From Candidatus Woesearchaeota archaeon (lineage in GTDB: Archaea > Nanobdellota > Nanobdellia > Woesearchaeales > UBA9642): a DNA stretch of 64,000 bases. The notes below the pieces were generated by a model, which worked only from the letters and a program-made list of their open reading frames with translations, was not told where the DNA came from and did not search any database. Both the position numbers and the translations under genes were made by a program. This document shows, one piece after another, positions 6,821 to 51,812 of this stretch (position 1 is its first letter; each line of letters begins with the position of its first letter). Location: positions 10,275 to 74,274 of the forward strand of contig JAWABG010000002.1 of assembly GCA_038884715.1 (NCBI GenBank), read 5' to 3'.

Positions 6821-7120
6821 TTATTTTAATTTTTTCTCTAATTCTCTTATCCTTTTTTCTATCTCTTTTTGTGTATTAACTTTGTTAAGATATCTGATTT
6901 TTTTTCCGAGAGCAGGGTCATGCAGAACATCAGTTATCCAATTTGAAAAATCATTTTTTTGTTGATTAGCATGGTAAGAGAAAGTGCCGTCATTCATTGT
7001 TTTTAAGGCGTTTGATAAATCCTTTATATTGCTCAATGTTGAACCATCACATACAAAAAATATTTTGTCAGGGCTTACATTTTCAAGAATTTTTTTAGGG
7101 TCTTTCCTGAAATTTGGCAT
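6821..7120 (-). CDS. Small protein carrying the recurrent NDF.NWI domain (copy 1 of 5)
   Basis: FFVCDGSTLSNIKDLSNALKTMNDGTFSYHANQQKNDFSNWITDVLHDPALGKKI aligns with four other segments in this window. Confidence 0.6.
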   Translation of the reverse strand: MPNFRKDPKKILENVSPDKIFFVCDGSTLSNIKDLSNALKTMNDGTFSYHANQQKNDFSNWITDVLHDPALGKKIRYLNKVNTQKEIEKRIRELEKKLK

Positions 7121-7355: not shown

Positions 7356-7592
7356 AATTTTCTCATTTTGCACGTGAACAAAAGCCAATTTATGTACTTT
7401 TTCTTATATTGTAAAGCTCTATATTGATTTATAATTATTATTTTATATTATACTTATTTTATATATTGCTGTAATCTATTATTTATAATATGAATATTAT
7501 AGGATGAGCAATTCGTTTTTATATTAAGAATCTAAAACCATAAGCTTTTTATTCATATAAGTTTTCCAATGTTCACGAGAAGAGGGGTCTTT

Positions 7593-19154: not shown

Positions 19155-19619
19155 TTATCCAAAATATTTTTTGTATTCATCCATTGAACCAATATCGCTG
19201 CTACTATTCCATGACTCCTTAATTTTTTTTATTATAATTATGGTTTGGTTTTTCATGCTTTCCCATTCGCAGGTTATCTTCTCGAGTATTTTTTTAATAT
19301 CCTCCACATTATTCTTAAGAAGTGCCTCAATTATAGCTCTTTGATAATACATAAACTTTCTATATATTAATACTATTTCTTTTTTTTCTTTTTCATTTAA
19401 AAAGCTATATTCATGGATTGCGGAATAGTTGTTCTCAGGCTGTAGTACTGCTTCAAGAATTTTTGAAATATTCTCCATTCTTTCAAGAATTCGTCTTAAT
19501 CCTTCTTTTAAAGGATTTTTCATATCTTTATTGTAATAGAAATCAAATTCATTTTCCAGAAAATTAAAATACATAATTCTAGTTTCATTAATTTTTTTTG
19601 ATTTTTTTCTCATTCTCAA
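19155..19619 (-). CDS. Hypothetical helical protein
   Basis: 154-aa ORF with no motif I recognise. Confidence 0.35.
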   Translation of the reverse strand: MRMRKKSKKINETRIMYFNFLENEFDFYYNKDMKNPLKEGLRRILERMENISKILEAVLQPENNYSAIHEYSFLNEKEKKEIVLIYRKFMYYQRAIIEALLKNNVEDIKKILEKITCEWESMKNQTIIIIKKIKESWNSSSDIGSMDEYKKYFG

Positions 19620-19957: not shown

Positions 19958-20140
19958 ATGTTGAAAATGAATAAATCCTCAAACAATATTGAAATAACTA
20001 CAGTCAGAATACCTAAAGAAGTAACAAACATTCTTGATTATTTAATTAAAATTGGATTATACAATTCTAGGAGTGAAGCAATCCGCGAATTTTTAAGAGA
20101 GTTTGTTAATGAATATTCCAGAAATCTGAAAGAAAAGTGA
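19958..20140 (+). CDS. Ribbon-helix-helix (CopG/Arc-type) DNA-binding protein
   Basis: ITTVRIPKEVTNILDYLIKIGLYNSRSEAIREFLREFV shows the beta-strand, helix, helix pattern. Confidence 0.7.
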   Translation: MLKMNKSSNNIEITTVRIPKEVTNILDYLIKIGLYNSRSEAIREFLREFVNEYSRNLKEK

Positions 20141-20147
20141 CAATAAA

Positions 20148-20465
20148 ATGAGAAATGAGACAATAGTAAGCATAAGACTTCCAAAATCCTTAGTTAAGGA
20201 ACTAAAAATTATTTCTGAAAAGGATCATTATAAAGATCTTAGTGAATTGATAAGGTATGTTGTTAGAAAAAGATCTTTGGATTATATTAAGGATTATATT
20301 AATTATGATTATATTAATTATATTAAGTTTGATGTAAGAAAAATAAAAGAAAATTTTTTCAAAAAACAAAAAGCTAAAGAAGAATATCAAGAAAAAGAAA
20401 AAAACAAAGAAAAGATATTAAGCGAATTAAAAAAAATTATAGAGGATTTAAAAAATGAATTATAA
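20148..20465 (+). CDS. Ribbon-helix-helix DNA-binding protein with a Lys/Glu-rich tail
   Basis: TIVSIRLPKSLVKELKIISEKDHYKDLSELIRYVVRK. The stop overlaps the next gene's start by 11 nt. Confidence 0.65.
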   Translation: MRNETIVSIRLPKSLVKELKIISEKDHYKDLSELIRYVVRKRSLDYIKDYINYDYINYIKFDVRKIKENFFKKQKAKEEYQEKEKNKEKILSELKKIIEDLKNEL

Positions 20466-23400
20466 AACTAGTGAAAAAATCAGCACTAAATCCAAATGTT
20501 TGTTGCTGGTCGCTGCAATGCTTATTTTATTTACATTTAATTTTGTAAGTGCAGTAAGTTTAGTTTCTCCTGTTAATGAAAGTTGGAAAAATACAACAGA
20601 AGTAATTTTTACTTTTATTCTTAGTGAGCAAGATTTGATCAACACTTCAGAGATAAGTATGATTATTAATCTGAGCGGTAATGGTTCTTCAAATCAGACT
20701 CGAGAAGAAATACTTAATGTGAGTGAACTTTTAAACCAAACAAGATGTACACTCAAGATAGATAATGCTAACATTACTACTACTATTTCAGTCTTAGGTC
20801 AGAATTCAATCTTTGCAAATTTAAGTGATGGAGCTCATAATTGGAAGATTAAGTGTGAGTTATCAGAGTCTGAAATTAGGGTAATTAATATTGACACGAT
20901 TCCACCATTCATATCTCTACTAAGTCCATTAAATAATAGTATTCTCGAAGTGTCAGGAATTACGTTAAATACTGATTTTGTGTTTGTTTCAGAAGACAAT
21001 TCACCAATACAGCAATGCAACATATATTTGTATTCTAATTTTATCAACATAACAGAATCACTTAATTATACTCAAACCCCCCAAATACATAAAGTTAACA
21101 ATATGCTCTTGGGTAATTACAGTTGGAAAGTAAGATGCAAAGATTATGTAGGAAATATGAGAACAAGCGATATATTTAATTTTAATATTGATCAAGTTCA
21201 GAATCCTAATTTTGACATTACATTTTCTAAACAGACTCTTAACATTGGAGAAGAAGGTAATATGATTATAAATGCAAATCCGAGTGCTCTTGTCCAATAT
21301 CTTCAGATAACTCCTCCGAGAGGAACAGCTTATATTTTGCCACCCATTTCAACTTTTCCATATATTCAAAAGCTTCCGCAAACAAACTATACAGGAATTT
21401 ACAATGTTTTTGGAATCATGATTTATAGAAACCAATTCTATAATATATCTAAGCAATACGAGATTGCTAACAATATGCAAATTCATATTTCTGGATTAAG
21501 AGATATTAATGCTTCAGAAACAATAACCTTGAATATGACTGCATCAGGAGGAATTGCTCCATATACGTACTATTGGATTGAGGAAAATTCAGACCATTCT
21601 AGAACAAATGGGCAAGTTTTTAGTAAAAAATATGATTCAGAAGGAAATTTCATTATTAATGCCGTTGTTCAAGATAGTTTCGGCAATAACAAAACCAGAT
21701 TAGTAACAATAGATGTAAATAAGTATTACAACTTAACCTTAATTGTTAAGGATACAAATAATAATCCATTAGAGGATGTATTAGTAATTGTGGATGATAA
21801 TGCAAATCGAACAGAAACTCATGGAAAAGTAAGCTTATTGCTTAAAGCAGGAGAATATAAAATTACGGCCACAAAAGACGGATATTTGACAAATACCACC
21901 GAGATAAATATCTCATCTAACAAAGAAATCGTACTAACACTTATAAAAAATGATATACTGAAACCACTAATTACATTAGAGACATCAGAGAACGCTTCCT
22001 TTGCTGGCGAGGCAATGCTTATTTTTAGTGTTAGCCATAATAAAAAGATTGACTGCACTCTATTAATAAATCAAAACGAGTTATCTTTTGAAAAAAAATC
22101 CACAATATCTGATGTTAATACAAGCAAAAAGCAATCATTTATTCTGAATCTTCCTGCAGGAACATATAATTGGAAAATACAATGCACAGATTCCTCAGGC
22201 ATAATTGGCGAGTCATCTGAAAGAACATTTTTTGTTTCTATTAATTCAAAAACAAACGAAAAGTTTCCCATTCAAAGCACTATTCCGACTAATGATTTTG
22301 CAGATTTTTTATCAATGCTAGAAAATTCTTTAACTTCTTATGAACACTACTCGAAAGAGCAAAAAGAGGTTGCTGAATTATTCAAGTTCAATACAAATAT
22401 TAATAATGCAATAAATGCAATAGAACGGGCAAGAATAGACATTGCAAACATTAATAGAATGGGTGCATTAAGTGATGAGCAGAGGTTAGATAAAATCAGG
22501 GAGATTAAAGAACGAATAGATTCCATATTAAAAGAGACATTACTTGATGTTCAAGTATCAGATACAACAGCGTTTATAAAATATCCTGAAAATAAAAATG
22601 TAGAGAAAATTTTGGATGAGTATTATACTGCCAAAAATTATAAATTAAATAAGAATGCTTTTATTTCAGCAAACAAGAAAATTCAGTCAAAATTACTGAC
22701 AACAACCAAAGTCTATATTGTGAATCTTGAATTGTTTAATAATAGTAAAAAAATAACGTTAGTATTAAGGGAATTAAAATTTGATGATGCCTCAACATAT
22801 AATGTAATAGAATATATTCCCAAGAGTCTTGCAGAGTCAGGTTCTGAAATAACTCTGGTGACTGCCGGAACAATAGTTAAAGACGATCCAATAATAGAGT
22901 ATGACAATATAGGAAATAATGATAATATGGGAGATAACACAGATCAGAATAATAAAATTTTCAAAATTGTTTATTATTATCCAAAACCAATTATTGTTGA
23001 GGAGATAAAAAATTCAGATACATTAATAATTTCTCAAAATATAAAAAATTCAGCCATTACTGGTTTTTCAATCCTAAGCAATATTAATATTAGGTTTAAA
23101 AAAATAGTCTATTTTTTAATTCCAGGAATAATTATTGCAGTGATATTATTGATAACTCTTAAAATTCCTCAAAAAGTGTTTCAACCGAGCAATCAAAATT
23201 TTGGAAATACAAAAATCTTTCCTTTAAAAAGCTCAACTAATGAGAAATTGAATTTAGTTATAATGATTAATGAGGCAAAGGATTTAATTTCTCACGGCAG
23301 AATTGATGATGCTACAAAAAAATATAATGCGATTCATCTTCACTACACTAATTCTTCTGAAAAAATCAAAAAAGAATTCCTTAATGATATATTGATAGTT

Positions 23401-23622
23401 TATTCAACTATTATGACGTCGATGGTGAATAGTCTAATCGACAACTGTTATTCGTGTTTGGAAAAAAACATGATTGAAGACGCAATAAAGATATATGAAC
23501 AGATTAGCCAACAATATATTCTTTTGACTGATGATCTTAAGAATCAATACTATGCCAGGTTATCTAATCTTGCAGAAAAGATAAATTTTCACCAACTTAT
23601 GTATGGAAAAAGACATGATTAA
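20455..23622 (+). CDS. Large type-I surface protein: Ig-like repeats, PKD and CarboxypepD_reg-like domains, TM helix, cytoplasmic TPR-like tail
   Basis: Signal/TM helix (CLLLVAAMLILFTFNFVSA). Repeated motif HNWKIKC / YSWKVRCKDYVGN / YNWKIQCTDSSG. PKD-like TASGGIAPYTYYW...VVQDSFGN. CarboxypepD_reg-like LIVKDTNNNPLEDVLVIVDD...YKITATKDGY. TM helix VYFLIPGIIIAVILLITL, followed by a helical tail. Confidence 0.65.
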   Translation: MNYKTSEKISTKSKCLLLVAAMLILFTFNFVSAVSLVSPVNESWKNTTEVIFTFILSEQDLINTSEISMIINLSGNGSSNQTREEILNVSELLNQTRCTLKIDNANITTTISVLGQNSIFANLSDGAHNWKIKCELSESEIRVINIDTIPPFISLLSPLNNSILEVSGITLNTDFVFVSEDNSPIQQCNIYLYSNFINITESLNYTQTPQIHKVNNMLLGNYSWKVRCKDYVGNMRTSDIFNFNIDQVQNPNFDITFSKQTLNIGEEGNMIINANPSALVQYLQITPPRGTAYILPPISTFPYIQKLPQTNYTGIYNVFGIMIYRNQFYNISKQYEIANNMQIHISGLRDINASETITLNMTASGGIAPYTYYWIEENSDHSRTNGQVFSKKYDSEGNFIINAVVQDSFGNNKTRLVTIDVNKYYNLTLIVKDTNNNPLEDVLVIVDDNANRTETHGKVSLLLKAGEYKITATKDGYLTNTTEINISSNKEIVLTLIKNDILKPLITLETSENASFAGEAMLIFSVSHNKKIDCTLLINQNELSFEKKSTISDVNTSKKQSFILNLPAGTYNWKIQCTDSSGIIGESSERTFFVSINSKTNEKFPIQSTIPTNDFADFLSMLENSLTSYEHYSKEQKEVAELFKFNTNINNAINAIERARIDIANINRMGALSDEQRLDKIREIKERIDSILKETLLDVQVSDTTAFIKYPENKNVEKILDEYYTAKNYKLNKNAFISANKKIQSKLLTTTKVYIVNLELFNNSKKITLVLRELKFDDASTYNVIEYIPKSLAESGSEITLVTAGTIVKDDPIIEYDNIGNNDNMGDNTDQNNKIFKIVYYYPKPIIVEEIKNSDTLIISQNIKNSAITGFSILSNINIRFKKIVYFLIPGIIIAVILLITLKIPQKVFQPSNQNFGNTKIFPLKSSTNEKLNLVIMINEAKDLISHGRIDDATKKYNAIHLHYTNSSEKIKKEFLNDILIVYSTIMTSMVNSLIDNCYSCLEKNMIEDAIKIYEQISQQYILLTDDLKNQYYARLSNLAEKINFHQLMYGKRHD

Positions 23623-23726: not shown

Positions 23727-26700
23727 ATGACTAATAAAAAACTTTTTCGAAATGATCTGATTATAATTTGTTTATTAATAGTTTTAGCTCTTGCAGGTTT
23801 AATCTATTTTGTGAATTATACAGGATATGCCTCGCTTGAGAGTAGAGGAGGAACCATAACAGAAATAAAGATAGCAAATATTCTTGGAAATCCGGAGTAC
23901 TGGTCGGGAGTTCATGGCGTTGCTGTTCTTGTGCCAGAATATAATTTACCGTTTAGTTTGGATGTTTACGCTAATAAAATTCATTTAGGTATTTTTCTTT
24001 TTGAGTGCTTTCAAAGAAGAATACCTCACGAATTGTATGCGAGTTTAGTTAATTCTACTGATTTGGACTGGGATACACTTCAGCCAGCAACTCCTGAAGA
24101 TGTCGATGCGTTCTTGGGGATAAATTCAACAAACAGCAATGTTTCTGCAACAATTATGTTTAGAGACAATATGACTGTTCAAATCGGAAATAGAACTTTT
24201 GTAGTTCCCTCACTATATACTCGTAAGCTTGATGAAAATGAGCCTCACACTTATGATACTGGCATAATGAAAGACGGTAATGGTAATTTGGTTTTTGTAA
24301 GCCATATTTATCTATACAATATGTCCTTATGTTATTATGGTGGTTTGTGTAATTATCAAATGCTTCTTCCAGTAAGAAATTGTACATATCTGATTAATGA
24401 AACTACTGATTGTTTTACTAATCCAACAAATTATAAAGGTTATGAGCATTATTATTTTTTTAATGATCCTACTGACTATTGTCCTAGAGGAGAAAATCCG
24501 TTTCTTGATTATGGAAATATTTCTGGGAATGTTACAGATGCATCTGGCAATCCACTTAATGACGTGCTTATAGTTGTTGGAGAGTATGGAGCAATGAGCA
24601 ATATTTCAAATCCTATAAGCCATTATCATATCAGAATGCCGGTAGGCGAATATTATATCTTTGCTGTAAAATCAGGATATCAAACCTACCTTAATAAGGT
24701 TAATATTACTTTTGAAAATATGACTTTTCATAATATTATTATGCAGCTAATGCCTATACCGAATTACAATTATAATACTCAGACACATGATTTTGATTAT
24801 GAATATGAGATTAAACCCGAAATTCAGATGCCTGCAAGAATTGAGGGGCAAGACTTTATTATATCTATAAGCTCAATAAATAAAACAATAAGAATGGGTG
24901 AGTTTATTCAAGAGGTTATAAATTTTCAAAACCTTAAGAATAGGACAATAACTGTGAATATCGAGATAAATGGAGCAGTCAAGGATTTGATTCAATTTGA
25001 TAACAAAAGGTTAGTTATTCCACCCGGAGAAACTCTTCCTTTAGTTCTAACAATATTTGGTAAAAAAGAGCCTGGTGTCTATGATGGTTATCTTAATGTG
25101 TCGGGTGATATTAATATATTGATTCCAATAACTATTACAATTGTAAAAGACAGACTTCCTGTTGAGGCATTGCTTTTGGATGTTGAGGTTTATAATAAAG
25201 TAGTTAATATAGGAGACAAAGTACAATTTAGGACGAAATTAAATAATATGCTTACAGCAATACCCTATCCTGTATCTCTAAAATTTACAATTCAAAACAA
25301 ACAAGGAAATGAAACATACTGGTATGATACAGCAAATATTAACTTAATAACTTCTTTTTCAATATTTAAAGAAGTGAAAATACTTGACAGAATGAAGCCA
25401 GGAGATTATGTTGTCAGGGTAACTGCAGAGTATCTTGACTTGTCCTCAAGCGCGAGCGACAGCTTTCAAGTTGTAATACCAGTTTACATGTTTAATATAT
25501 TAGGATTTCCTGTATGGAAATGGTTGCTACTACTCCTTATGTTGTTACTGGCTTATTTAACATATAGATTAATCAAGAAATATATAAGATCTAAAAAGAA
25601 ATATGATGTGCCCATTGATATTAGTTCATTACCTAAAAAAGATAAGAACGCCTTGTATGTTGGTTTACTTGCTGAAACAAAAATTAAAGCTTATTTGAAT
25701 ATTGATAACCTGACTACCCACATGATAGTGGCGGGTTCTACAGGTGGAGGTAAATCATTTAGTGTGCAAGTTATTGTTGAAGAGGTCCTACAAAAAAGAA
25801 AATCAGTTTTGGTCTTTGATCCAACAGGCCAGTGGACGGGATTCTTAAAAAAATTGACAGATAAAACCTTACTAAGAAAATATCCTGAGTTTGATATGGA
25901 TAAAAATATGGCAAAAGGCTCAGATGGAAACATTAAATTAATTAACAATCCATATGAGGAGATTGACCTTAAAAAATTTATTAAGCCAGGTGAAATACAA
26001 ATATTTGTTCTGAATAGGTTGCGGCCAGAAGAAATTGATATTTTTATAGGTAACACGATAATGCAGGTTTTTAATCAGAAATTTGAGGAGTCAAGAGAAT
26101 TAAAAACTCTTCTAGTTTATGATGAGGTCCACAGATTGCTTCCAAAATTTGGAGGAAGTGGTGTTGGATTGTTGCAGCTTGAAAGAGGGTGTAGAGAATT
26201 TAGAAAATGGGGTATAGGATTAGTAATGATTTCTCAAGTACTAGGTGACTTTGTTGAAGAAATCAGGGCGAATATTGGTACAGAGATTCAGATGCGTACT
26301 AGAGATGAAAATGATCTACAAAGAATAAAGGAAAAATATTCAGATATTTTCGAGAAAGCTCTTCTTAGATCTGTCGTCGGAACAGGTATGATTCAGAATG
26401 CAGAATATAATAATGGAAGGCCTTACTATATAACATTTAGACCAATCATGCATAGTATTCAAAAACTTTCAGAGGAAGAATTAAACAAGTATTCAGAATT
26501 AAATGATACTTTGTTAGATATCGAATATCAAATTGAGCAGTTAGAGAAAGAGAAGCAGGATATATTTGACTTGCAGCTCGAATTAAGACTTGCATATGAT
26601 AAACTAAGGACTGGAGCATTTAGTATAGTAGAGGTTTATCTTGAGGGTCTCATTCCTAAAATTGATAATATTTGGAAAAAGTTAGGTAAGAAGCCATTAA

Positions 26701-28523
26701 AAAGGGAAGTTAAACTAATAGACACAAAAATAATGGAGCAGGAGATGAAAAAAGCAGAAGAAGCAAGAAAAAGATACGAGCAAAATGCTCAGCAAGAAAT
26801 TATTCCTAAAGACAATACTAACGACTTACAAAAAATACCTAATTCAAACCATCCAAATACTGAATTACAAATAAATGAAAAAAAATCAACCTCAAATATT
26901 ACCGATAATGGATTCCCAAAATTTGAATATTCTTTACCAATTACGAGGGCAATAACATTTAATGATGGTCAATCTGCTACTAGTTTATCTGAGTTAATTG
27001 ATGTTCTGGACGGAATGACAGTTTCGACATTTAAGAATCATGTATCAAAACAAAAAAACGATATCGCCGAATGGATAAAAAAAGAATTTAATGATGATAA
27101 TCTGAGTAAAAAACTAGAAAAGTCAACAAAAAAAGAAGAAATGATTAAATTACTAAACACTGAAAAATCAAAAAATGAAAAAATTATTTTTAAGGATGAA
27201 AATACTAAGGATAACCTGAAAACTACAGAAAAATCATTCACGCTTAAAAAAGAACCAGGACCGATTATCGATAATAAAAATTTAGATGAAAAATTTGTAA
27301 AATCAGAATTAGAGACTCAACAAAAAACGGATAAAATAAAGAATGATTTACTAAGCGAGTTAACAGAATCTGAACAACATATTTCAAGCAATAAAACAAA
27401 AAAAAAAAGAAAGAGTCTTTTTGGATTTTTATTCAATAGAAAAAAGTCTGAAATAAAGCAGGATGGAGATTTTGACTCAGATCAAAAAACTGCTCAAGAA
27501 ATTAAAATCACGGAAAAACAAGTTAGAGATAATAAACTACAAAAAATTTCAGGTGAACAAATAAACAAGTCAATTTTAGGATTCTTGAAAAGTAATAAAA
27601 ATAGTTTGAGCACAAATAAGAAAAAAAAGGATAATTTGATGCCTGAACTTTTAATTCATGAACCATCAACCCTTAAAGAAACGAAGGAATTACTAAGCGA
27701 AGGTATCAACATTAAAGATAATAAAGATAAGAAAGAAGAAAAAAAGAGTATTCTAAAAACAGAAAATATTGATCAAACGAGGATATTTAATTTATCTGAT
27801 ACATTAAATTATAAAACCGAAGAATCCAATGAGAATTTAATTAAAAAAGATGAAGAAACATTAAAAAAAGAGATAGAGACTCGTTTAAAAGAAGAATTGA
27901 GTAAGCAGTTAAAGAAAGAATTTGAGAATAATCTTCGAAGAGAGATAGAGGCGAGAATAAGAAGGGAAATAGAGGATGAATACAACAGAAAACAGAGTGA
28001 GCAAAAACTCGATGTATCCGGAGTTACCAAAGTTCAAATTTCTGAAACTAGTACTGAAAACCCTAAACGCCCAAGCGAAAAAATTGAGCCAGTGGTTGAA
28101 AATAAAAAATCCAGTCAAGATAAAGAAAAAACTCTCGAGAAACGTTTCTCAGATATTGATTTTACAAAAATTAATGCAGAGGAATTGAAGTACAGAGCAG
28201 ATAGTCTTGAAACAATTGATGAGAAAATATTCTTATTGGAAAAGGGAGAAAAATATTTTGATTCTGATCCAAATATTAAGTTTTCTCTGGCTGTTCTTTA
28301 TCAGCTAAAGACAGATTATGAAAATGCTGAAAAGCAATATAAAAAAATACTTCAAATTAGTCCAAATAATATAGAGATTATGATGAGGTTGGGGCTTGTG
28401 CTCAAACATGAAAAAAAATATGATGAAGCTATAGACTATGTAAGGAGGGTATTAGTTATAGAACCAAAAAATATAAAAGCTAAGATGTTGCTAGAACAAC
28501 TAGAAGGTGAGAAGGCATTATGA
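23727..28523 (+). CDS. 1598-aa chimeric membrane protein: extracellular beta-rich domains, TM, HerA/FtsK-superfamily (DUF87-like) ATPase, coiled coil, NDF.NWI domain (copy 2), K/E-rich region, C-terminal TPRs
   Basis: TM1 is LIIICLLIVLALAGLIYFV. CarboxypepD_reg-like GNVTDASGNPLNDVLIVV...YYIFAVKSGY. TM2 is WKWLLLLLMLLLAYLTYRLI (about 25510-25575). Walker A is THMIVAGSTGGGKS (25731-25757) and Walker B is LLVYDEVHRL (about 26109-26135). TPR repeats lie at about 28150-28520. Confidence 0.75.
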   Translation: MTNKKLFRNDLIIICLLIVLALAGLIYFVNYTGYASLESRGGTITEIKIANILGNPEYWSGVHGVAVLVPEYNLPFSLDVYANKIHLGIFLFECFQRRIPHELYASLVNSTDLDWDTLQPATPEDVDAFLGINSTNSNVSATIMFRDNMTVQIGNRTFVVPSLYTRKLDENEPHTYDTGIMKDGNGNLVFVSHIYLYNMSLCYYGGLCNYQMLLPVRNCTYLINETTDCFTNPTNYKGYEHYYFFNDPTDYCPRGENPFLDYGNISGNVTDASGNPLNDVLIVVGEYGAMSNISNPISHYHIRMPVGEYYIFAVKSGYQTYLNKVNITFENMTFHNIIMQLMPIPNYNYNTQTHDFDYEYEIKPEIQMPARIEGQDFIISISSINKTIRMGEFIQEVINFQNLKNRTITVNIEINGAVKDLIQFDNKRLVIPPGETLPLVLTIFGKKEPGVYDGYLNVSGDINILIPITITIVKDRLPVEALLLDVEVYNKVVNIGDKVQFRTKLNNMLTAIPYPVSLKFTIQNKQGNETYWYDTANINLITSFSIFKEVKILDRMKPGDYVVRVTAEYLDLSSSASDSFQVVIPVYMFNILGFPVWKWLLLLLMLLLAYLTYRLIKKYIRSKKKYDVPIDISSLPKKDKNALYVGLLAETKIKAYLNIDNLTTHMIVAGSTGGGKSFSVQVIVEEVLQKRKSVLVFDPTGQWTGFLKKLTDKTLLRKYPEFDMDKNMAKGSDGNIKLINNPYEEIDLKKFIKPGEIQIFVLNRLRPEEIDIFIGNTIMQVFNQKFEESRELKTLLVYDEVHRLLPKFGGSGVGLLQLERGCREFRKWGIGLVMISQVLGDFVEEIRANIGTEIQMRTRDENDLQRIKEKYSDIFEKALLRSVVGTGMIQNAEYNNGRPYYITFRPIMHSIQKLSEEELNKYSELNDTLLDIEYQIEQLEKEKQDIFDLQLELRLAYDKLRTGAFSIVEVYLEGLIPKIDNIWKKLGKKPLKREVKLIDTKIMEQEMKKAEEARKRYEQNAQQEIIPKDNTNDLQKIPNSNHPNTELQINEKKSTSNITDNGFPKFEYSLPITRAITFNDGQSATSLSELIDVLDGMTVSTFKNHVSKQKNDIAEWIKKEFNDDNLSKKLEKSTKKEEMIKLLNTEKSKNEKIIFKDENTKDNLKTTEKSFTLKKEPGPIIDNKNLDEKFVKSELETQQKTDKIKNDLLSELTESEQHISSNKTKKKRKSLFGFLFNRKKSEIKQDGDFDSDQKTAQEIKITEKQVRDNKLQKISGEQINKSILGFLKSNKNSLSTNKKKKDNLMPELLIHEPSTLKETKELLSEGINIKDNKDKKEEKKSILKTENIDQTRIFNLSDTLNYKTEESNENLIKKDEETLKKEIETRLKEELSKQLKKEFENNLRREIEARIRREIEDEYNRKQSEQKLDVSGVTKVQISETSTENPKRPSEKIEPVVENKKSSQDKEKTLEKRFSDIDFTKINAEELKYRADSLETIDEKIFLLEKGEKYFDSDPNIKFSLAVLYQLKTDYENAEKQYKKILQISPNNIEIMMRLGLVLKHEKKYDEAIDYVRRVLVIEPKNIKAKMLLEQLEGEKAL

Positions 28524-29191
28524 TAGGTCCTGAAAAATATTTTTATCTATGCAATGGTGATGTACTGAGGAGTATTGAAGAGTTATATGATTATGTGAGC
28601 ATAATGCCAGATTTTGTTTTTTACCATCATGTGTCTAAGGAGCGTAATGATTTTTATAACTGGATAAAAGATGTTTTTCAAGATATTGGGCTAGCTAACC
28701 AAATAAAGGAAATAATAAATAAGGATGATTTTGTAGAGTTTTTTAAGAATAAAAAAGCAAATTCACAAAACATTAAACAGATAGCAGAATTAATGGAAAA
28801 ATTAAATGAAACAAAAATAAATAAAGAGGAGAGAAAGATAATAAAAGAATACAAGGAAAATAGTAGTAAGAAATTAAACGAGGATAAAATTTATGATCCT
28901 AAAGATCAAGAGAATAAGAGAATAATAATAAATAATTTGAATAATCAAATCGAGATCTCAAAAAAAGAAATTTCTGATCTTAGAAAAAAAGGAAAGGATG
29001 TTTTTTTATGTCAGATTTATTTTGATATTATTAAGGCGAAACAAAAAATTGCCGAGTTGAGTTTGGATGATAGGGATATTGATTTGTTAAGGGAATTAAA
29101 TGATAAACTAAAACAAGAAATTGAGTATTCAAAGAAAAACGAGGAAATAAATATTAGAAATGAAATTCAAGAGAAAGTAGAAATGCATTAA
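28520..29191 (+). CDS. NDF.NWI-domain (copy 3) plus coiled-coil protein
   Basis: FYLCNGDVLRSIEELYDYVSIMPDFVFYHHVSKERNDFYNWIKDVFQDIGLANQI. ATGA start/stop overlap with the 1598-aa gene. Confidence 0.6.
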   Translation: MIGPEKYFYLCNGDVLRSIEELYDYVSIMPDFVFYHHVSKERNDFYNWIKDVFQDIGLANQIKEIINKDDFVEFFKNKKANSQNIKQIAELMEKLNETKINKEERKIIKEYKENSSKKLNEDKIYDPKDQENKRIIINNLNNQIEISKKEISDLRKKGKDVFLCQIYFDIIKAKQKIAELSLDDRDIDLLRELNDKLKQEIEYSKKNEEINIRNEIQEKVEMH

Positions 29192-29295: not shown

Positions 29296-30090
29296 ATGGG
29301 ATTATTCTCATTTGGGAAAAGAAAAAAAAGTAAAAATGAAGAAAATGATACTCAAGACTTTGATGAGTTTGACGAGCCAAAGGAAATAAAAATTAATTCT
29401 GATACTCTTGATTTAAACCTTAAAATTTCAAAGCTTACAGCACAGGTTGAATCATTAATGGAGCTTAGAAATTCATATAATGAGAGATTTCAGCAATTTT
29501 CTCAGCAACTCGGCGAAATAAGAATGATGGCTATGGATACGAATAGGTCTGTGCAACTAATACAACAAACAGCAGCAAAAGCTACAGAACTTATTGAACA
29601 AGTTCAGGCCGAGAAAATCCTAATGGAGATTGCTAAACAAGAGCAAAGACTTGAAATATTAAAGGCAAATATAGAAACAAATGATAGTGTGATACATAAG
29701 ATAATTGATGAATTAAAAGAAATTCGCAATCAGATGTCTTTTTATAAAGGAACACAACAGGTAATTGAGTTATTCAGTGAAATGAAAGAAAATTTGGTAA
29801 CGATGAAGAAAATTGAAAATAATGTTGTTAGGCATTCTGATAAAACCGAGCACATGTTTATAAATTTTGAAACAGTTCTTGCTAAGATTGCATATATTGA
29901 AAAGGGCTTTGAAGATCTACAAACAAATATTAAACTATTTACTAAAGAGCAAAAAGAAAAACAACAATCTGATTATAAATATTTGGAATTAAAAGTAGAG
30001 GATTTAAAAGTGCAATTGCAAGAAACTATACTTCAATTAAACAAAAGGTTGGATAAGTTCAGGGAAAATGTTAATAAGATTGAGTTTTGA
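29296..30090 (+). CDS. All-helical coiled-coil protein with a basic amphipathic N-terminus
   Basis: MGLFSFGKRKKSK, then an acidic linker and long heptad-like helices. No catalytic motif. Confidence 0.5.
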   Translation: MGLFSFGKRKKSKNEENDTQDFDEFDEPKEIKINSDTLDLNLKISKLTAQVESLMELRNSYNERFQQFSQQLGEIRMMAMDTNRSVQLIQQTAAKATELIEQVQAEKILMEIAKQEQRLEILKANIETNDSVIHKIIDELKEIRNQMSFYKGTQQVIELFSEMKENLVTMKKIENNVVRHSDKTEHMFINFETVLAKIAYIEKGFEDLQTNIKLFTKEQKEKQQSDYKYLELKVEDLKVQLQETILQLNKRLDKFRENVNKIEF

Positions 30091-30326: not shown

Positions 30327-31280
30327 TTATCTATAGAATTTGGCGGCGTCCTCTGGACTGATAGGGTTAATTATTATCCCTGTTTCGTATTCAAAACCTG
30401 CCCAGGTTGATAATCTTGGTGTAATCTCAAAATGTAAGTGAAGATTATTAACTCCTTGCTTTATTAGAATATTGAAAGGAGCGTTTATCAGTTTAAGCTT
30501 TTGTGTGATATATAGCAGTTGGTCAGCTATTTCATATTTTTCCTGGTCGTTAAGATCTGTTAGTTCTTTTATATCTCTTTTTGGAAAAACCCAAGCTTCC
30601 ATAATAAATCTTGATGCGTAAGGTGTGAAAGAAATCGTTGAATTTGTTTCTTTAATTCTCCTAAAGCTGTCTTTCTCTGAATTAATTATGCCACAATATG
30701 GACAATAATAATTTTTTTTCAAAAATTCATTTACTTTATTCTCTGCTATAAGAATGTCTGGTGGGATAACATTTATGCTTACCAGTTGCCAATGTGTATG
30801 CACAATTGATGTTCCAGCTTCTTTTTTGTGATTTTTAAAAATAACAATGTATTTTGTATTGGCGTTTTTTTTTAGTTCACGCATTCTATAACAAAAAACA
30901 TCTAACACTTCTTTTATTCTGTCAATGCTTAAATCCCAAAATTGTTGATTGATGTCTGGGGTTTCCACTATAATTTCATGCTTGCCAACCGCATCAGCGT
31001 ATGTGTAGAATGTATTGTCTGTTGAAATGCTAATCTTTCCCGCATTGCCAACTGCGGAGTATAGGTTTGGAAAAACCCTAATTTTCCAGTTACCATTATT
31101 ATCATTAACTCTGAAAATTTCTTCTGGCGTCAATTTTTCATTCCCGGGACCAAAAGAATCAATTTTTACTTCTTCTTGAATCTCATTTTTTTTAAATTGA
31201 TCAGGTCTTTTAGCTCGCTCAGTAGCGATTATTACATAATAATCCAGCAGATAATCTTTTCTCAATTCCAAGTATTTCAT
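30327..31280 (-). CDS. GalT-like (HIT superfamily) hexose-1-phosphate nucleotidyltransferase/phosphorylase
   Basis: His triad variant HTHWQ, a CPYC zinc motif, and a typical N-terminus ELRKDYLLDYYVIIATERAKRP. Confidence 0.7.
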   Translation of the reverse strand: MKYLELRKDYLLDYYVIIATERAKRPDQFKKNEIQEEVKIDSFGPGNEKLTPEEIFRVNDNNGNWKIRVFPNLYSAVGNAGKISISTDNTFYTYADAVGKHEIIVETPDINQQFWDLSIDRIKEVLDVFCYRMRELKKNANTKYIVIFKNHKKEAGTSIVHTHWQLVSINVIPPDILIAENKVNEFLKKNYYCPYCGIINSEKDSFRRIKETNSTISFTPYASRFIMEAWVFPKRDIKELTDLNDQEKYEIADQLLYITQKLKLINAPFNILIKQGVNNLHLHFEITPRLSTWAGFEYETGIIINPISPEDAAKFYR

Positions 31281-31351
31281 CCTCTTTTTTTATATAACAT
31301 TTTTTATTTTTATATAATTTTCATATAATAATCTCCTTTATTTTTATATAT

Positions 31352-33181
31352 TTATTTTTTTAATGCAAGATTGTGTGCTTCAATATAATTTTTAATAAGA
31401 AATTTCCAGTCTGCCAGCAAGGCAAGATTTTTTGCATCAATCTTTTTTTCGACTCTATCAGCATGACTTAATTCAGAATACTCTTTCAATATCTCAAAAA
31501 ATTTTTGTACAACCTCATCCTCAGTTTTTTGAAACCTGTCTAAAACATACATTCCCGAATTTTTGTCTTTAAGCCTTGGTTTGATAAATCTTCCGAACCC
31601 GGAAAGGTCGGTTGTCAGACTGCAAACACCAAGCGCTGCACCCTCTAAAGGGGTATATCCCCATGGCTCGTAATAACTCGGAAATAATCCTAAATGACAA
31701 CCAGCCATAGCATCATATAAAGGAAGGTTAATAAGACCGTCATCTCCATCTAAATAAACCGGATATATTATTGCCTTTACTGGATCATCTTCTTTATTAT
31801 CTACACCCAAGTCTCTTAGGGTTTTAACTACTATGTTATTATCTTCATTTATTAAGTAATGTGTTGATAGTGGTGGATTGCCCTTTCTCCTGAAATGAAG
31901 AATATTTTTTCTACCTTCTGTTAGAAATTCCTTTGTGAAAAGACTCTCGCTTGTTATGTTTTTCTCCAAAATCAAATCATATGTAATTCTTTTAAGCAAT
32001 TCAGCAGAGTTCCATTGTACAAAATTCTTTATATGCTGGTAGTATGATTTGTTTTCCATCATCTCTGTTCTTAATCCTCCATGTTCCATAGGAACCCAGA
32101 ACATAGCACATATTGTTCTTTTGCTGTTTTTTATTTTCAAGTAATCATTTAATTTTGCTAAAGCTTTAATAAATATGTCAATTCCCTTGTTTCTATACTC
32201 AAATCTCCCACTAATAAAGAAGAGAAGGCTGTGCTCTAAATCGAAGGCGTAGTGTGGAAAAAAATAATAAGTTAAAAACTCCCTAATCTTTTCTCTACAA
32301 GTTACGTGTTTTATACTTGTTTCTTCTATAGTTGGAAATTTTTCCATATCTAATCCGTTTAATACAAGGACTTCTGGCTTTCTGCCAAGGATTTTTTCTG
32401 CCTCAATACTAGTGATCTCTGAAACAGTTGTAAATATATCTGTTGCATTTGCGCAAGCCTTTTCTGTTAAATATTTATCTTGTACACCCAAAGAATATGC
32501 TTCTTTGTCTGGATCAATCTTTTCAAGATTTTCATACAATTGCCCTCCACTTCCCGCTATACTTCTGCCCAGCATTGTGGCGTGTGTTGTAAATACTGTT
32601 CTAATTTTAGAATTTGTTTTTTTTAGATAAAGTATTATTCCTCCCGCCATCCATTCATGACAATGCACAACAATTTTTTTATTTTCAAGTTTATTTTCAA
32701 TTATCTGAAGTAATCTTCCCACTGAATAAGACCACATCATTGGCTCATCAAAATCCCAATTTGATCTTAGCGAGTCAATCTTATAATCTTCCCACATTTT
32801 TTTTCTAAGATCATTTTTTTGTGGAATTCTTGCAGAAAAATCAATTAAAATTGTTAATGGTTCACTTTCTGCATCTATCCACTTACCAAAATAACAGATA
32901 ATTCCTTCATTATTTGCTTGATTGAATGACTTCTCTAAAAATTCAGGTGGATTCAATTTTTCAAAATGTATTTTTGCATTATTCTCAAAATATGGCCCTA
33001 TTAGAAAATAATTATTCCTACCATAATACTCAACCATTCTTGCAGTCTTGCTTTTTACAACAGTAAATATTCCACCAACTTTGTTGCAGACCTCCCAAGA
33101 ACTCTCGAATAAATAATCTGCTTCAGCCTTAATACTGTTTTGAGTTTTCTTTGTTTCATTTTTATTATCTTTTTGATTCAT
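31352..33181 (-). CDS. Glycogen synthase, eukaryote-type GT3 family
   Basis: FESSWEVCNKVGGIFTVVKSK, HCHEWMAGG, FTTHATMLGR, FISGRFEYRNKG and LFPSYYEPWGYTPLE are collinear with animal and fungal glycogen synthase motifs recalled from memory. Confidence 0.85.
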   Translation of the reverse strand: MNQKDNKNETKKTQNSIKAEADYLFESSWEVCNKVGGIFTVVKSKTARMVEYYGRNNYFLIGPYFENNAKIHFEKLNPPEFLEKSFNQANNEGIICYFGKWIDAESEPLTILIDFSARIPQKNDLRKKMWEDYKIDSLRSNWDFDEPMMWSYSVGRLLQIIENKLENKKIVVHCHEWMAGGIILYLKKTNSKIRTVFTTHATMLGRSIAGSGGQLYENLEKIDPDKEAYSLGVQDKYLTEKACANATDIFTTVSEITSIEAEKILGRKPEVLVLNGLDMEKFPTIEETSIKHVTCREKIREFLTYYFFPHYAFDLEHSLLFFISGRFEYRNKGIDIFIKALAKLNDYLKIKNSKRTICAMFWVPMEHGGLRTEMMENKSYYQHIKNFVQWNSAELLKRITYDLILEKNITSESLFTKEFLTEGRKNILHFRRKGNPPLSTHYLINEDNNIVVKTLRDLGVDNKEDDPVKAIIYPVYLDGDDGLINLPLYDAMAGCHLGLFPSYYEPWGYTPLEGAALGVCSLTTDLSGFGRFIKPRLKDKNSGMYVLDRFQKTEDEVVQKFFEILKEYSELSHADRVEKKIDAKNLALLADWKFLIKNYIEAHNLALKK

Positions 33182-33259
33182 TTTTTCTTGATTTAATATT
33201 TTACTTTAATTATTATATTACTAATTATTACATTAATAGTTATAGTGAATAATAAAATC

Positions 33260-33631
33260 TTATAACAGCAATTTTCCTATTATGCCACCAGCCACCAATC
33301 CAATTATGAGTCCAATCAAAAAGTCTTTTAATAATGTAAAATCACTTATTATATGACTTTTTCCAATCTCTTTTGTTAGTAAACTTGTTCTATTGTCTAT
33401 ACTTCTTAGTACTTCTTCTTTAGTTTTTGATTGGCGTACTGAATCTGCAAGTATTTTATCTTCCAAGCTGTACTCAATCCAGTTAGCAAAATCATTTTTG
33501 TCATTATTTAGATGATGAGAAAACTCTTCATCATTCATTGTTTCTATTGCTTTTTTTAATTCAAAGATGTTCTTAGCTTTAATGTTATTCTTTGCAATAA
33601 ATACCTCATCCTCTTTTGCTTCTTTTATCAT
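33260..33631 (-). CDS. NDF.NWI-domain protein (copy 4) with a C-terminal TM anchor
   Basis: IFELKKAIETMNDEEFSHHLNNDKNDFANWIEYSLEDKILADSV, with C-terminal LIGLIIGLVAGGIIGKLLL. Confidence 0.6.
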   Translation of the reverse strand: MIKEAKEDEVFIAKNNIKAKNIFELKKAIETMNDEEFSHHLNNDKNDFANWIEYSLEDKILADSVRQSKTKEEVLRSIDNRTSLLTKEIGKSHIISDFTLLKDFLIGLIIGLVAGGIIGKLLL

Positions 33632-33636
33632 CTAAC

Positions 33637-33984
33637 TCACCATAATTCTTTTATTATATATTCATAAATTTTTTTTTGAATCTCTTGTTTATTCTTTAGA
33701 TGTCTAATTTGTTCTGCTAATTCTGTTTCATCAAAAACATCTCTTATCCAATTGGAGAAATCATTCCTTTCATCATTGACATGATGAAAAAAGACAGCAT
33801 CCTCCATTTTACCCATTTCTTCAGCCAACTCTTTAATGTTTTTTATCTTTTTTCCGTCTCTGAGTATAAAAAAATACTTGTTTTCAATATCTTTTTTTAT
33901 TTTTGAAATACCAGCTTTATTTTTAGTTAGATTTTTATGCATAGAACTATTTCTAATTTTTTTTTTATTTTCCAAAGTTCTCAA
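33637..33984 (-). CDS. NDF.NWI-domain protein (copy 5)
   Basis: FFILRDGKKIKNIKELAEEMGKMEDAVFFHHVNDERNDFSNWIRDVFDETELAEQI. Confidence 0.6.
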   Translation of the reverse strand: MRTLENKKKIRNSSMHKNLTKNKAGISKIKKDIENKYFFILRDGKKIKNIKELAEEMGKMEDAVFFHHVNDERNDFSNWIRDVFDETELAEQIRHLKNKQEIQKKIYEYIIKELW

Positions 33985-34085
33985 CCTCTTTTATGTAAAC
34001 TTTATTTGTCTAACTTTCTAATCTCAAATAAACCCGCCAACTCAAATCTTTGATTTAGTTGTTGGTATATATAAATATTGTGATA

Positions 34086-35330
34086 TTATCTATTTATTGT
34101 TGTTGGAATATTATTTTGAACTATTTTTTGATCAATACATTTTTTATGTGCATTTATTCTTATCTGAATGTCGTGAATTACATTCATAAAATTTATAAAT
34201 GCTTCATATGGTGAATCATATGGATTGAAGTATTTATGTACGTCTCCATCATTAAACCATTTTGTGCACATATAATAAAAATGATCGCTTGTCTGTAATT
34301 TTCTCCAATTGTTAATGATCTCCGGATCGTTTGTTTTTAGTACATCTTGCTCTATTTCGTAGAGTTTGTGAATTGCTGATTGTTGCATTCTATTGCCGAG
34401 CCAAGCACTTAGATCTCGCTCAATGTCTGCCCACGAAATAAAATTATGGATGTCTACTTCGTCCATCGGTTCATATTGTAATAAATCTGATGGGTTCTTG
34501 AATTCAAGGTGTTTGTATTTTAGAATTTCATTAGGAAGATGGGATAAAAAATTAAAGATTCCTGTATCTTCCCATTGGTGCTCTCCGAATGTTTCATAGT
34601 CCATAAAAAGATTTATAGTTTGGCCTTGAGTTGCAGCAATCCACGAGGCAAACTTGTCCGCTAACAATGGGTGCTGTTCCCAACCTTTATTTGAAAATCT
34701 AAATGCTATATCATCGCTTAGTTTATAATTTTTTAATAGTAGCTTTAAGTTTTTTGTTGTTTTTGCCTTGTAAACATAGTTTGGGCTTCTCCAGCCAAGA
34801 ATATGGTCTGCTCCTTCTGCTATTATTCCTTTATAACCCATGTCTTCAATAAAATGAGCTAACTCATTATTGTATATTAATTCTGTATTTCTAAAAATTT
34901 TTGGTTTTTGGTTAAATAATGATTTAATTTTATGTTTATGTAAGTTAACCTGTTCTTTGAATTCTTTTTTTGAGTATAGATATGACAGAGAATGATGATA
35001 TGTCTCGCTTAGGATTTCAACATAACCAGTATCATTTAGCTTTTGAAACGATTCTATTACTTCTGGAGTATATTCTTCAAATTGTTCTAGGACAACTCCT
35101 GTGAAGCTATACGCAACCTTGAATTTGCCATTGTATTTATTTATTAAGTCTAACATTATTTTATTAGTTGGAAGATAGCACTTATTAGCAACTTTTTCAA
35201 TAACAAATTTATTTTTTGCATCATCGAAGTAATTAGTGTTGTGTCCAATATCGAAAACTCTGTATTTTCTTATTCTGTATGGTTGGTGTACTTGAAAATA
35301 AAAACAAATACTTGTCATTGTGATTTTCAA
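34086..35330 (-). CDS. Glycoside hydrolase family 57 (alpha-amylase / branching-enzyme type)
   Basis: N-terminus CFYFQVHQPYR, then ...EILSETYHHSL... and ...MDYETFGEH, consistent with the GH57 catalytic region. Confidence 0.75.
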   Translation of the reverse strand: MKITMTSICFYFQVHQPYRIRKYRVFDIGHNTNYFDDAKNKFVIEKVANKCYLPTNKIMLDLINKYNGKFKVAYSFTGVVLEQFEEYTPEVIESFQKLNDTGYVEILSETYHHSLSYLYSKKEFKEQVNLHKHKIKSLFNQKPKIFRNTELIYNNELAHFIEDMGYKGIIAEGADHILGWRSPNYVYKAKTTKNLKLLLKNYKLSDDIAFRFSNKGWEQHPLLADKFASWIAATQGQTINLFMDYETFGEHQWEDTGIFNFLSHLPNEILKYKHLEFKNPSDLLQYEPMDEVDIHNFISWADIERDLSAWLGNRMQQSAIHKLYEIEQDVLKTNDPEIINNWRKLQTSDHFYYMCTKWFNDGDVHKYFNPYDSPYEAFINFMNVIHDIQIRINAHKKCIDQKIVQNNIPTTINR

Positions 35331-36562
35331 TGAGCTAATGCCATTGCCTCCTTATACGCATCAACACATCTCTGTGCTGGCTCAATCAGGTTAAATTTAC
35401 TAACTTCTTTAATACTGTTTTCTTTTAATTCTTGGTATAATTCTGGATGCCTTAAGACACTTACTACCTTGTTGGTCATTTCATCAATATCCCAAAAATC
35501 AACTTTCAATGCGTTCTTTATAACTTCTGAAACTCCTGACTGTTTTGATATTATTACTGGGGTGCCATTTTTTAATGATTCTAGTGCAACAAGACCAAAT
35601 GGTTCTGCTACACTCGGCATTACAAATAGATCTGCCATCTGAAATGCTTTATGAACATCTTTGCCTGTTAACCAGCCAGTAAATATTACTTTGTTCTCAA
35701 TCCCAAGTTCAACTGCTCTATTGATTATTCTGGGTAACATGTCTCCAACACCTGCAAAAATAAATTTTGTATTTGGCTCATAATCAAGAACTTTTTTTGC
35801 CATTTCTATAAAATAATCAGGTCCTTTTTGAATTGTAACCCTCCCCATAAATAGAACTATTTTATCATTTTCAGATATTCTTGAATTAAAATTAATATTA
35901 TAATCGGGATTGTTTGGATCTATTCCCCAATGAACTACTTTTATTTTATCTGGATTAATATTATAATATCTTATCACATTATTTTTTGTGAAATTGCTAT
36001 TTGCAATTATTAAATCAGCGTTTTTCAGACCTTCAAATTCTATATGGCTTATATACGTATTTGGATTTCCGCCTGTCCTGTCAAATTCTGTTGCATGAAT
36101 GTGTGCTATTAGAGGTTTTTTTGATACTTTTCTTGCTATCATTCCTGCCGGGTAAGTCATCCAGTCATTTACATGAATAATATCATGATCCTCAAGCTCA
36201 GCAATTATTCCAGCAAGCTGCGCAAATCTCTGAACTTCTGAATAAATATCCTTTCCATATACTTCATTATTCTTTCCTGTTTCACTTATTATCTGAAGTT
36301 TTTTATAAAATTCATTATATGCATCATACGTGAGGTATGGCATTAGAATACTATTTATTTGTTTTATCTTTATTTTTTTATGAATATTGTTTGTGCCAAT
36401 TATTTTTACAAAATCTGATTTTGCATCTTCTGGTGCCTTTGGCATAACAAATGTTATTTCATGTCCAAGGAGTGATAGTCCTTTTGTTAGGTCATAGCAT
36501 GCAGTTCCTAATCCTCCAGATTTAAATGGAGGAAACTCCCAACCAAACATAAGGACCTTCAC
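35327..36562 (-). CDS. glgA: Archaeal-type glycogen/starch synthase (GT-B, GT4/GT5-like)
   Basis: MKVLMFGWEFPPFKSGGLGTACYDLTKGL, and C-terminal ...PSVAEPFGLVALESL. The stop overlaps the GH57 start (ATGA). Confidence 0.75.
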   Translation of the reverse strand: MKVLMFGWEFPPFKSGGLGTACYDLTKGLSLLGHEITFVMPKAPEDAKSDFVKIIGTNNIHKKIKIKQINSILMPYLTYDAYNEFYKKLQIISETGKNNEVYGKDIYSEVQRFAQLAGIIAELEDHDIIHVNDWMTYPAGMIARKVSKKPLIAHIHATEFDRTGGNPNTYISHIEFEGLKNADLIIANSNFTKNNVIRYYNINPDKIKVVHWGIDPNNPDYNINFNSRISENDKIVLFMGRVTIQKGPDYFIEMAKKVLDYEPNTKFIFAGVGDMLPRIINRAVELGIENKVIFTGWLTGKDVHKAFQMADLFVMPSVAEPFGLVALESLKNGTPVIISKQSGVSEVIKNALKVDFWDIDEMTNKVVSVLRHPELYQELKENSIKEVSKFNLIEPAQRCVDAYKEAMALAH

Positions 36563-51649: not shown

Positions 51650-51812
51650 ATTCGTTAAGAATCAAAATTAATATAAAAATATTACTTTTTTATAATGAAA
51701 CATTTTTTCTATAATTGACAATCCCTATTAATTTTATAATTTAATTCATAAAAGTTTATAAATTAAAAAATATTTCTTTTACTTTATAAAATACTTGTTG
51801 GGGTTAACAATT

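Follow-up and report, generated by a model that had tools for sequence, protein, structure and literature searches.

Genes for proteins of the SPEARE type, which are thought to mediate contact with the host, rank among the most conspicuous genes of DPANN archaea that still lack an explanation. SPEAREs were described as giant surface proteins of Nanohaloarchaeota with a C-terminal transmembrane (TM) helix and a conserved intracellular region, the latter being taken as a type III restriction enzyme; similar sequences were noted in Woese-, Aenigm- and Micrarchaeota and in Altiarchaeales, and versions of only 655 and 717 amino acids (aa) were also listed (Hamm et al. 2019, PMC6642349). The cytoplasmic module, first called a restriction enzyme, was later called a VirB4/TraG secretion ATPase: the published topology runs from a signal peptide through an ectodomain and a TM helix to a cytosolic VirB4/TraG-like ATPase and then a coiled coil, and a type IV secretion system (T4SS)-like injector was proposed (Reva et al. 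2023, PMC10266531). Here, a stretch of 64,000 nucleotides from a Candidatus Woesearchaeota archaeon (contig JAWABG010000002.1 of assembly GCA_038884715.1; hereafter the window) was analysed, with emphasis on the gene at 23727-28523 on the forward strand, which encodes a single polypeptide of 1598 aa combining an ectodomain, a TM helix and a HerA-like ATPase. Judged from its sequence, this protein belongs to the SPEARE-type surface proteins of DPANN, as a short form of that family.

Two findings place the window protein in this family. Its residues 585-975 align by BLASTP with the C-terminus of the Ca. Nha. antarcticus SPEARE, the last 401 residues of which are printed in SI Fig. S18 of Hamm et al. 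2019 (PMC6642349), with 42% identity in 395 aa (E 1e-114), and collinearity extends from the TM helix up to the point where the coiled coil ends. Additionally, KYK27349.1 (AYK26_03765, 'Euryarchaeota archaeon SM23-78'), an entry of SI Table S3 in that study (PMC6642349), is a 1323-aa orthologue of the window protein (P0016 in our set) and is encoded in the same operon. The window protein and the SPEAREs thus have in common, besides the homologous C-terminal module and their occurrence in DPANN, an N-terminal export signal, an adhesion-type ectodomain ahead of a single TM helix, a cytosolic P-loop ATPase and a terminal coiled coil. At 1598 aa, the protein does not have the giant size (thousands of aa) of these proteins together with laminin-G, serine protease or toxin-like domains, and Pfam detected neither laminin-G nor protease domains in it or in 20 orthologues. 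It further differs in that its ectodomain, in which no toxin-like parts were detected either, comprises only 555 aa instead of thousands and is conserved across orders, and in that it adds approximately 570 aa (a DUF5752 domain, a K/E-rich linker and tetratricopeptide repeats, TPRs) beyond the coiled coil, whereas the Nha. antarcticus SPEARE ends right behind that element. Its neighbours are also different, namely ribbon-helix-helix (RHH), ~1000-aa membrane, DUF5752 and coiled-coil proteins, while Nanohaloarchaea reportedly carry a VirB4-like ATPase gene downstream. Taken jointly, the family identity, the topology and an intact active site are considered highly probable. The restriction enzyme reading of the SPEARE module came from a weak ResIII match in Pfam, which was also seen here (E 4.6e-4, below the cut-off) and reflects P-loop similarity only; its rejection agrees with Reva et al.

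The gene forms one uninterrupted frame of 1598 codons with an ATG start, and its product is composed of the following features (all on the + strand):

23727-28523 (+): fusion gene, 1598 aa, SPEARE-type ectodomain-TM-HerA-like ATPase fusion
23754-23822 (+): N-terminal hydrophobic segment, aa 10-32, a Sec signal peptide or signal anchor
23823-25487 (+): ectodomain, aa 33-587, beginning with a conserved beta domain and continuing as a tandem array of Ig-like beta-sandwiches
24519-24707 (+): CarboxypepD_reg-like beta-sandwich, aa 265-327 (Pfam)
25488-25565 (+): TM helix, aa 588-613, ending 63 aa before the Walker lysine
25566-26471 (+): HerA-clade RecA-like ATPase without HAS barrel, aa 614-915 (Pfam, PDB search, AlphaFold2/Foldseek)
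25731-25757 (+): Walker A motif AGSTGGGKS, aa 669-677, with K676 corresponding to HerA K154
26109-26126 (+): Walker B motif LLVYDE, aa 795-800, with E800 corresponding to HerA E356
26202-26204 (+): R826, equivalent of the trans-acting arginine finger R381 of HerA
26472-26804 (+): four long helices (coiled coil or helical bundle), aa 916-1026 (AlphaFold2), conserved and also ending the Nha. antarcticus SPEARE
26943-27161 (+): DUF5752-like ('NDFxxWI') domain, approximately aa 1073-1145 (Pfam, profile search)
27162-28196 (+): K/E-rich low-complexity linker, disordered and not conserved among orthologues
28215-28502 (+): approximately three TPRs, aa 1497-1592 (Pfam), found in 4 of 21 orthologues

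A preliminary description had read this domain order from the translation, and all of its elements were recovered by Pfam, hydrophobicity and AlphaFold2 (AF2) modelling: hydrophobic segments lie at aa 10-32 and 588-613, where helices had been placed at about 10-32 and near residue 600; the ectodomain is beta-rich, as judged from the CarboxypepD_reg-like module and an all-beta model; Pfam DUF87, PDB and Foldseek agree on a DUF87/HerA-type Walker A/B core; the coiled coil behind the ATPase appears as four long helices; the 'NDF.NWI' domain is identified as DUF5752; the K/E-rich linker of about 400 aa is reflected in residues 1101-1500, which are 38-46% charged; and Pfam places the three C-terminal TPRs at aa 1497-1592.

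A search for orthologues with the first 1100 residues of the window protein returned 21 proteins, consisting of 20 full-length relatives and one 100% identical fragment from a Pacearchaeota metagenome-assembled genome (MAG). The full-length orthologues derive from independent Woese- and Pacearchaeota assemblies and are 35-79% identical over 68-100% of the query. Aligned with the window protein (21 sequences), they are collinear from the N-terminal helix through the coiled coil, including aa 560-660, and invariant residues flank the second TM helix on either side. The junction between the surface and ATPase portions at 25500-25650 is therefore genuine.

With respect to topology, the first 528 residues contain 18 of the 25 N-x-S/T sequons, 17 of them inside the ectodomain and one (aa 30) at the edge of the first helix, a distribution that fits an extracellular and glycosylated segment at aa 33-587. 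A G-Y-A-S motif is conserved after the first helix in the orthologue consensus, and this helix may therefore be cleaved as a Sec signal peptide, leaving a type I protein. The ectodomain makes up approximately 35% of the protein length and is about 40% identical among orthologues, with Cys94 and Cys252 invariant. Its CarboxypepD_reg-like module is below the Pfam cut-off in the window protein itself, while 18 of the 21 orthologues match (best E 5e-50). The AF2 model of the ectodomain is all-beta (pLDDT 73.5) and matched generic Ig, FnIII and ASH-type sandwiches only in Foldseek; no laminin-G or lectin identity was obtained for the conserved N-terminal domain, either by Pfam across the 21 orthologues or by Foldseek of the ectodomain model.

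The motor was compared with solved structures by sequence, by profile and by fold. Pfam gives a DUF87/HerA match at aa 644-742 (E 4e-15 to 3e-16), and a sequence search of the PDB is headed by HerA (E 3e-11 to 1e-9), with VirB4 (4ag5) at E 0.69. A profile of the family against the PDB similarly yields HerA at 7e-13 to 1e-7, followed by FtsK (0.018), DotL (0.04), TrwB (0.12) and EccC (2.8). The AF2 model of aa 600-1140 (pLDDT 82) has HerA 4D2I as its best Foldseek match, the first non-HerA structure, TcpA, appearing at rank 28. Matches to TrwB_AAD_bind, T4SS-DNA_transf and AAA_10 in Pfam are weak, and FtsK_SpoIIIE (PF01580) is matched at E 0.0024 with 17.8 bits against a cut-off of 24. In Sulfolobus HerA, mutagenesis has established K154, D176, E356 and the arginine finger R381 as essential (PMC4351679); in the HMMER alignment these residues correspond to K676, D698, E800 and R826 of the window protein, of which K676, D698 and R826 are invariant in the 21 aligned sequences and E800 is kept in at least 90%. 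The preliminary description had raised the possibility that catalytic residues beyond Walker A/B are absent and had proposed a comparison with HerA for an arginine finger; D698 and R826 are in fact present besides K676 and E800. The active site is thus predicted from these residues to be intact and of the oligomer type, and conservation of the trans-acting arginine argues for an oligomeric ring. The loop that follows Walker B, HRLLPKFGGSG, has 9 of its 11 residues invariant across the 21 sequences and is a candidate pore loop. The HAS barrel is missing, as the alignment starts at HerA residue 120 and the AF2 model has two short strands only between the TM helix and the P-loop. From the PDB sequence search, the family profile, Foldseek and the conserved catalytic residues, it follows that the motor belongs to the HerA clade and not to VirB4/TraG, an assignment that seems undescribed; literature searches combining DPANN, HerA, DUF87 and membrane found nothing on such an architecture.

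Within the region behind the motor, the match of the window protein to DUF5752 (PF19027; conserved family motif F..H....(K/R)NDF..WI) is weak (E 0.008, approximately aa 1077-1131), while the domain is matched in 11 of the 21 orthologues (best E 3e-11). A profile built from the five 'NDFxxWI' copies of the window retrieves proteins annotated 'DUF5752 family protein', most of which are free-standing, measure 85-130 aa and occur in the same archaea; a name search found no paper on DUF5752. The presence of a DUF5752/TPR tail seems undescribed for this family. The five copies within 64 kb are located at 6821-7120 (-), 28520-29191 (+), 33260-33631 (-), 33637-33984 (-) and approximately aa 1073-1145 of the fusion protein, and the two small tandem genes among them lie within a glycogen-metabolism cluster.

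The distribution of the family was explored by an exhaustive HMMER search with the ATPase domain, the representatives being clustered at 50% identity. At E<1e-3 this search identified 1498 representatives, and under the stricter limit of E<1e-30 at least 362 clusters remained. Identity to the query among the 150 best matches is 43-100% (45-58% in most), usually across nearly the whole ATPase domain, and these proteins are 404-6253 aa long, with the motor near the C-terminus. A TM helix lies ahead of the motor in 159 of 167 retrieved representatives, and its end is separated from the Walker lysine by 59 residues in the median, with 95% of the 159 falling within 45-70, while the ectodomain ranges from approximately 100 to 5527 aa (median 623). 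Members with a taxonomic name come from Woese-, Pace-, Nano-, Aenigm-, Micr- and Altiarchaeota, plus Hadarchaeales. Furthermore, a locus scan of GTDB species representatives, based on a 9-sequence alignment, confirmed at least 507 family loci. The preliminary description had regarded the covalent link to a large ectodomain as atypical. This is correct for canonical HerA, but not within DPANN, where the fusion defines SPEARE (described in 2019) and is very common, as the cluster and TM counts above indicate. Membrane tethering as such is normal in the FtsK-HerA superfamily, for example in FtsK, SpoIIIE, the type IV (T4) coupling proteins and EccC. As a separate observation, MAGs of Hadarchaeales, which are not DPANN, hold family members (the cluster of P0138), one of which is 7818 aa long and annotated with a PGF-pre-PGF domain.

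The fusion gene is the fourth of six genes that together form a conserved operon, in which it is accompanied by the following partners:

19958-20140 (+): 60-aa RHH protein
20148-20465 (+): 105-aa RHH-like protein with a K/E-rich tail, overlapping the next gene by 11 nt
20455-23622 (+): 1055-aa bitopic surface protein that has PKD/Big/CarboxypepD_reg domains in addition to a signal/TM segment, a TM helix (aa 879-910) and a cytoplasmic tail that is helical
28520-29191 (+): 223-aa protein with a DUF5752 domain at the N-terminus; the gene start overlaps the stop of the fusion gene (ATGA)
29296-30090 (+): 264-aa coiled-coil protein with a conserved basic N-terminus (M-x-x-F...KKK)

This six-gene order recurs in approximately 50 of 80 GTDB loci, the flanking TruD and adenylate kinase genes often being retained too, and a six-gene operon conserved across Woese- and Pacearchaeota seems undescribed. 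Neighbour clustering over 81 non-redundant loci, in which the presence of each partner family near the fusion gene was scored, located the surface-protein family in 66 loci (at position -1 in 51), the DUF5752/K-rich family in 58 (+1 in 47), the coiled-coil family in 52 (+2 in 41) and the RHH-like family in 40 (-2 in 37). Homologues of the coiled-coil partner are also found downstream of giant paralogues (L027, L028 and L058), which suggests that the motor and the coiled-coil protein constitute a core pair. A profile of the coiled-coil family retrieved generic coiled coils only from the PDB and Pfam, without a recognisable family. Its 'MGLFSFGK' start had brought PspA/ESCRT-III to mind, an idea that was not supported, a single member having matched PspA_IM30 (E 4e-4). 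The RHH-like protein matches CdrS at E 0.02, far below the cut-off.

Several further observations concern these loci. A 154-aa open reading frame (ORF) at 19155-19619 (-), with no Pfam match, keeps its place in many related loci (24-32% identity), with adenylate kinase on one side and the RHH gene on the other. A second, paralogous module occurs in the same archaea (L019, L039, L043, L069, L079 and others), comprising a fusion of approximately 700-800 aa with its own upstream TM protein of approximately 700 aa and a divergent surface protein of approximately 1050-1140 aa on the opposite strand, to which L069 and L079 add a coiled-coil partner of approximately 290 aa downstream. Some MAG records with the Woese-/Pacearchaeota-type operon (L012, L016, L022, L024 and others) are titled 'uncultured Methanosarcinales archaeon' or 'Saccharibacteria bacterium', which are probably placeholder or mistaken labels.

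Our best guess for the function is that the fusion protein works as a ring translocase docked at the membrane below an adhesin, with DNA as the most likely substrate. The ATPase subunits would form a ring attached to the membrane from the cytoplasmic side, in a topology resembling that of a type IV coupling protein or of Streptomyces TraB with the extracellular loop enlarged into an adhesin; the ATPase domain sits on a fixed short tether, some 60 residues below the TM helix, and the display of six ectodomains around a pore-like motor is plausible. At a contact site, the ring would act together with the membrane and coiled-coil proteins of its operon, consuming ATP to pass a polymer through the cell envelope, while the ectodomain would provide anchorage or contact and the DUF5752/TPR tail might dock partners or regulate the machine. 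DNA would be the likeliest polymer, given that it is the cargo of the HerA, FtsK and TraB relatives and that genes for two RHH proteins come first in the operon. The general design has precedents in the coupling proteins (TrwB/VirD4, TcpA) and in Streptomyces TraB, FtsK and SpoIIIE, which belong to the same superfamily, combine N-terminal TM segment(s) with a membrane-docked hexameric DNA motor and show weak Pfam and Foldseek similarity to the window motor. In contrast to the window protein, however, they have a short loop in place of a large folded ectodomain, their sequence similarity to its motor is far weaker than that of HerA, and the relaxase, all-alpha domain and gamma domain associated with them are absent from it.

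A number of observations weigh against such a translocase. The ectodomain is conserved in this orthologous group at the level given above, while host-specific adhesins would be expected to be hypervariable. No polytopic channel protein is encoded in the operon, and if the N-terminal helix is cleaved, each protomer would retain one TM helix, which is few for a DNA conduit. Domain scans detected no nuclease, relaxase or sequence-specific DNA-binding domain on the motor. Furthermore, the ectodomain and the cytoplasmic part of SPEARE were recovered in different gel size fractions by Hamm et al. (PMC6642349), and the protein may therefore be processed. The polymer-translocation mechanism is accordingly put forward tentatively, with a chance that we place below even, while the explanation as a whole, in an estimate that blends its parts, is judged to be somewhat probable.

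Of the alternatives, the one that survives best is the published interpretation of the same module as a T4SS-like effector injector (Reva et al. 2023, PMC10266531), in which a VirB4/TraG-like ATPase would push protein effectors through an ectodomain 'straw' into the host. The weak matches to TrwB_AAD_bind, T4SS-DNA_transf and AAA_10, together with a TM-loop-TM-nucleotide-binding domain topology that resembles coupling proteins, are in keeping with this proposal; however, profile and fold group the motor with HerA (7e-13) as against VirB4 (0.69) and TrwB (0.12), the operon is devoid of a second VirB4-type ATPase and of VirB3/6/8-like membrane proteins, and the ectodomain consists of beta-sandwich modules with no evident lumen. 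Neither T4SS membrane components nor a relaxase were found in the operon or among the recurrent neighbours, and an injector of this kind is considered unlikely.

An FtsK-like segregation or division machine was also considered, that is, a membrane-anchored DNA pump with a coiled-coil tether at the division site and the RHH proteins acting as CdrS-like regulators. The position of the operon beside TruD and adenylate kinase in many genomes, a conserved chromosomal neighbourhood, would suit such a role, as would the conserved rather than hypervariable ectodomain, the weak CdrS match of the RHH-like protein (E 0.02) and the conserved basic N-terminus of the coiled-coil partner. That CdrS match is far under the cut-off, however, FtsK_SpoIIIE (E 0.0024) is below its own, no FtsK gamma/wHTH domain is present, and paralogues fuse the same motor to hugely variable adhesin-type ectodomains of up to approximately 5500 aa. 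A division machine is thus regarded as quite improbable.

A canonical HerA with extra domains, engaged either in DNA-end resection with NurA or in anti-phage defence (as in Sir2-HerA and DUF4297-HerA), is effectively refuted and retains very little likelihood. The HerA of repair and defence complexes (4D2I; bacterial anti-phage HerA) is indeed the nearest solved relative by sequence, profile and fold, sharing Walker A, D176, the Walker B glutamate and R381, and the HerA models of PADLOC match around the P-loop. These matches are partial only, PADLOC gives none for the neighbours, and the NCBIfam HerA models score approximately 30 bits against a cut-off of 800; on these grounds the repair and defence readings were rejected. 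Unlike HerA, moreover, the window protein has no HAS barrel and a different C-terminal helical region, no NurA, Mre11, Rad50, Sir2 or DUF4297 gene or other effector partner is encoded in its operon, and it is tethered to the membrane with more than one third of its length outside the cell. Finally, an assembly or frameshift artefact fusing a surface-protein gene to an ATPase gene, which the preliminary description had named among its possible refutations, has unusual size and nothing else in its favour and is given practically no chance, since 20 independent full-length orthologues from different assemblies run collinear across 25500-25650, a 100% identical partial protein is present in an NCBI Pacearchaeota MAG and the fusion is seen again in 159 of 167 family representatives. 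With these alternatives weighed, a membrane-docked ring translocase beneath an adhesin remains our preferred explanation.

The remainder of the window, which has a G+C content of approximately 29%, includes archaeal housekeeping genes encoding GatD/GatE, CDC48, family-B DNA polymerase (PolB), archaeosine TGT, ThyX, TruD and adenylate kinase. Across its 64 kb, neither tRNA genes (ARAGORN) nor Rfam families at gathering thresholds were detected. A glycogen/alpha-glucan cluster at 30327-36562 (-) encodes a GalT-like HIT protein, two DUF5752 proteins, a GH57 enzyme and a GT4/GT5 glycosyltransferase, and also a eukaryote-type glycogen synthase (PF05693, E 2e-145). The CDC48/VAT-type double AAA+ ATPase at 7569-10301 (+) is 910 aa long, with AAA domains starting at approximately aa 251 and 669 and what appears to be a K/E-rich, coiled-coil-looking insertion of approximately 150 aa between D1 and D2. 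ThyX, encoded at 51795-53639 (+), comprises 614 aa with two Thy1 stretches and is apparently duplicated or fused, while the adjoining gene at 50612-51649 (-) encodes a dCMP deaminase that has a P-loop kinase-like domain fused at its N-terminus.

The fusion that had appeared atypical is the defining trait of a DPANN family already known, abundant and still unsolved in function, and the window protein is a compact representative of it, at 1.6 kaa, with a clear HerA-clade motor, a fixed distance to the membrane and defined partner genes. This suggests that a widespread core machine was elaborated into the giant forms, and the mechanism of the family is directly testable because the small size of the cytoplasmic domain and of its partners allows expression and assays. 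A more far-reaching and doubtful conjecture is that the six-gene module constitutes an undescribed envelope machine of Woese- and Pacearchaeota, in which a HerA-type ring under an adhesin would shuttle a polymer, DNA or some other, between the symbiont and either its partner or the environment, with the giant SPEAREs as host-range variants of this core machine. If true, it would be a single-polypeptide TraB-like device for transfer or uptake and would qualify as a candidate in the long search for how DPANN cells, with their poor biosynthetic capacity, obtain nucleic acids.

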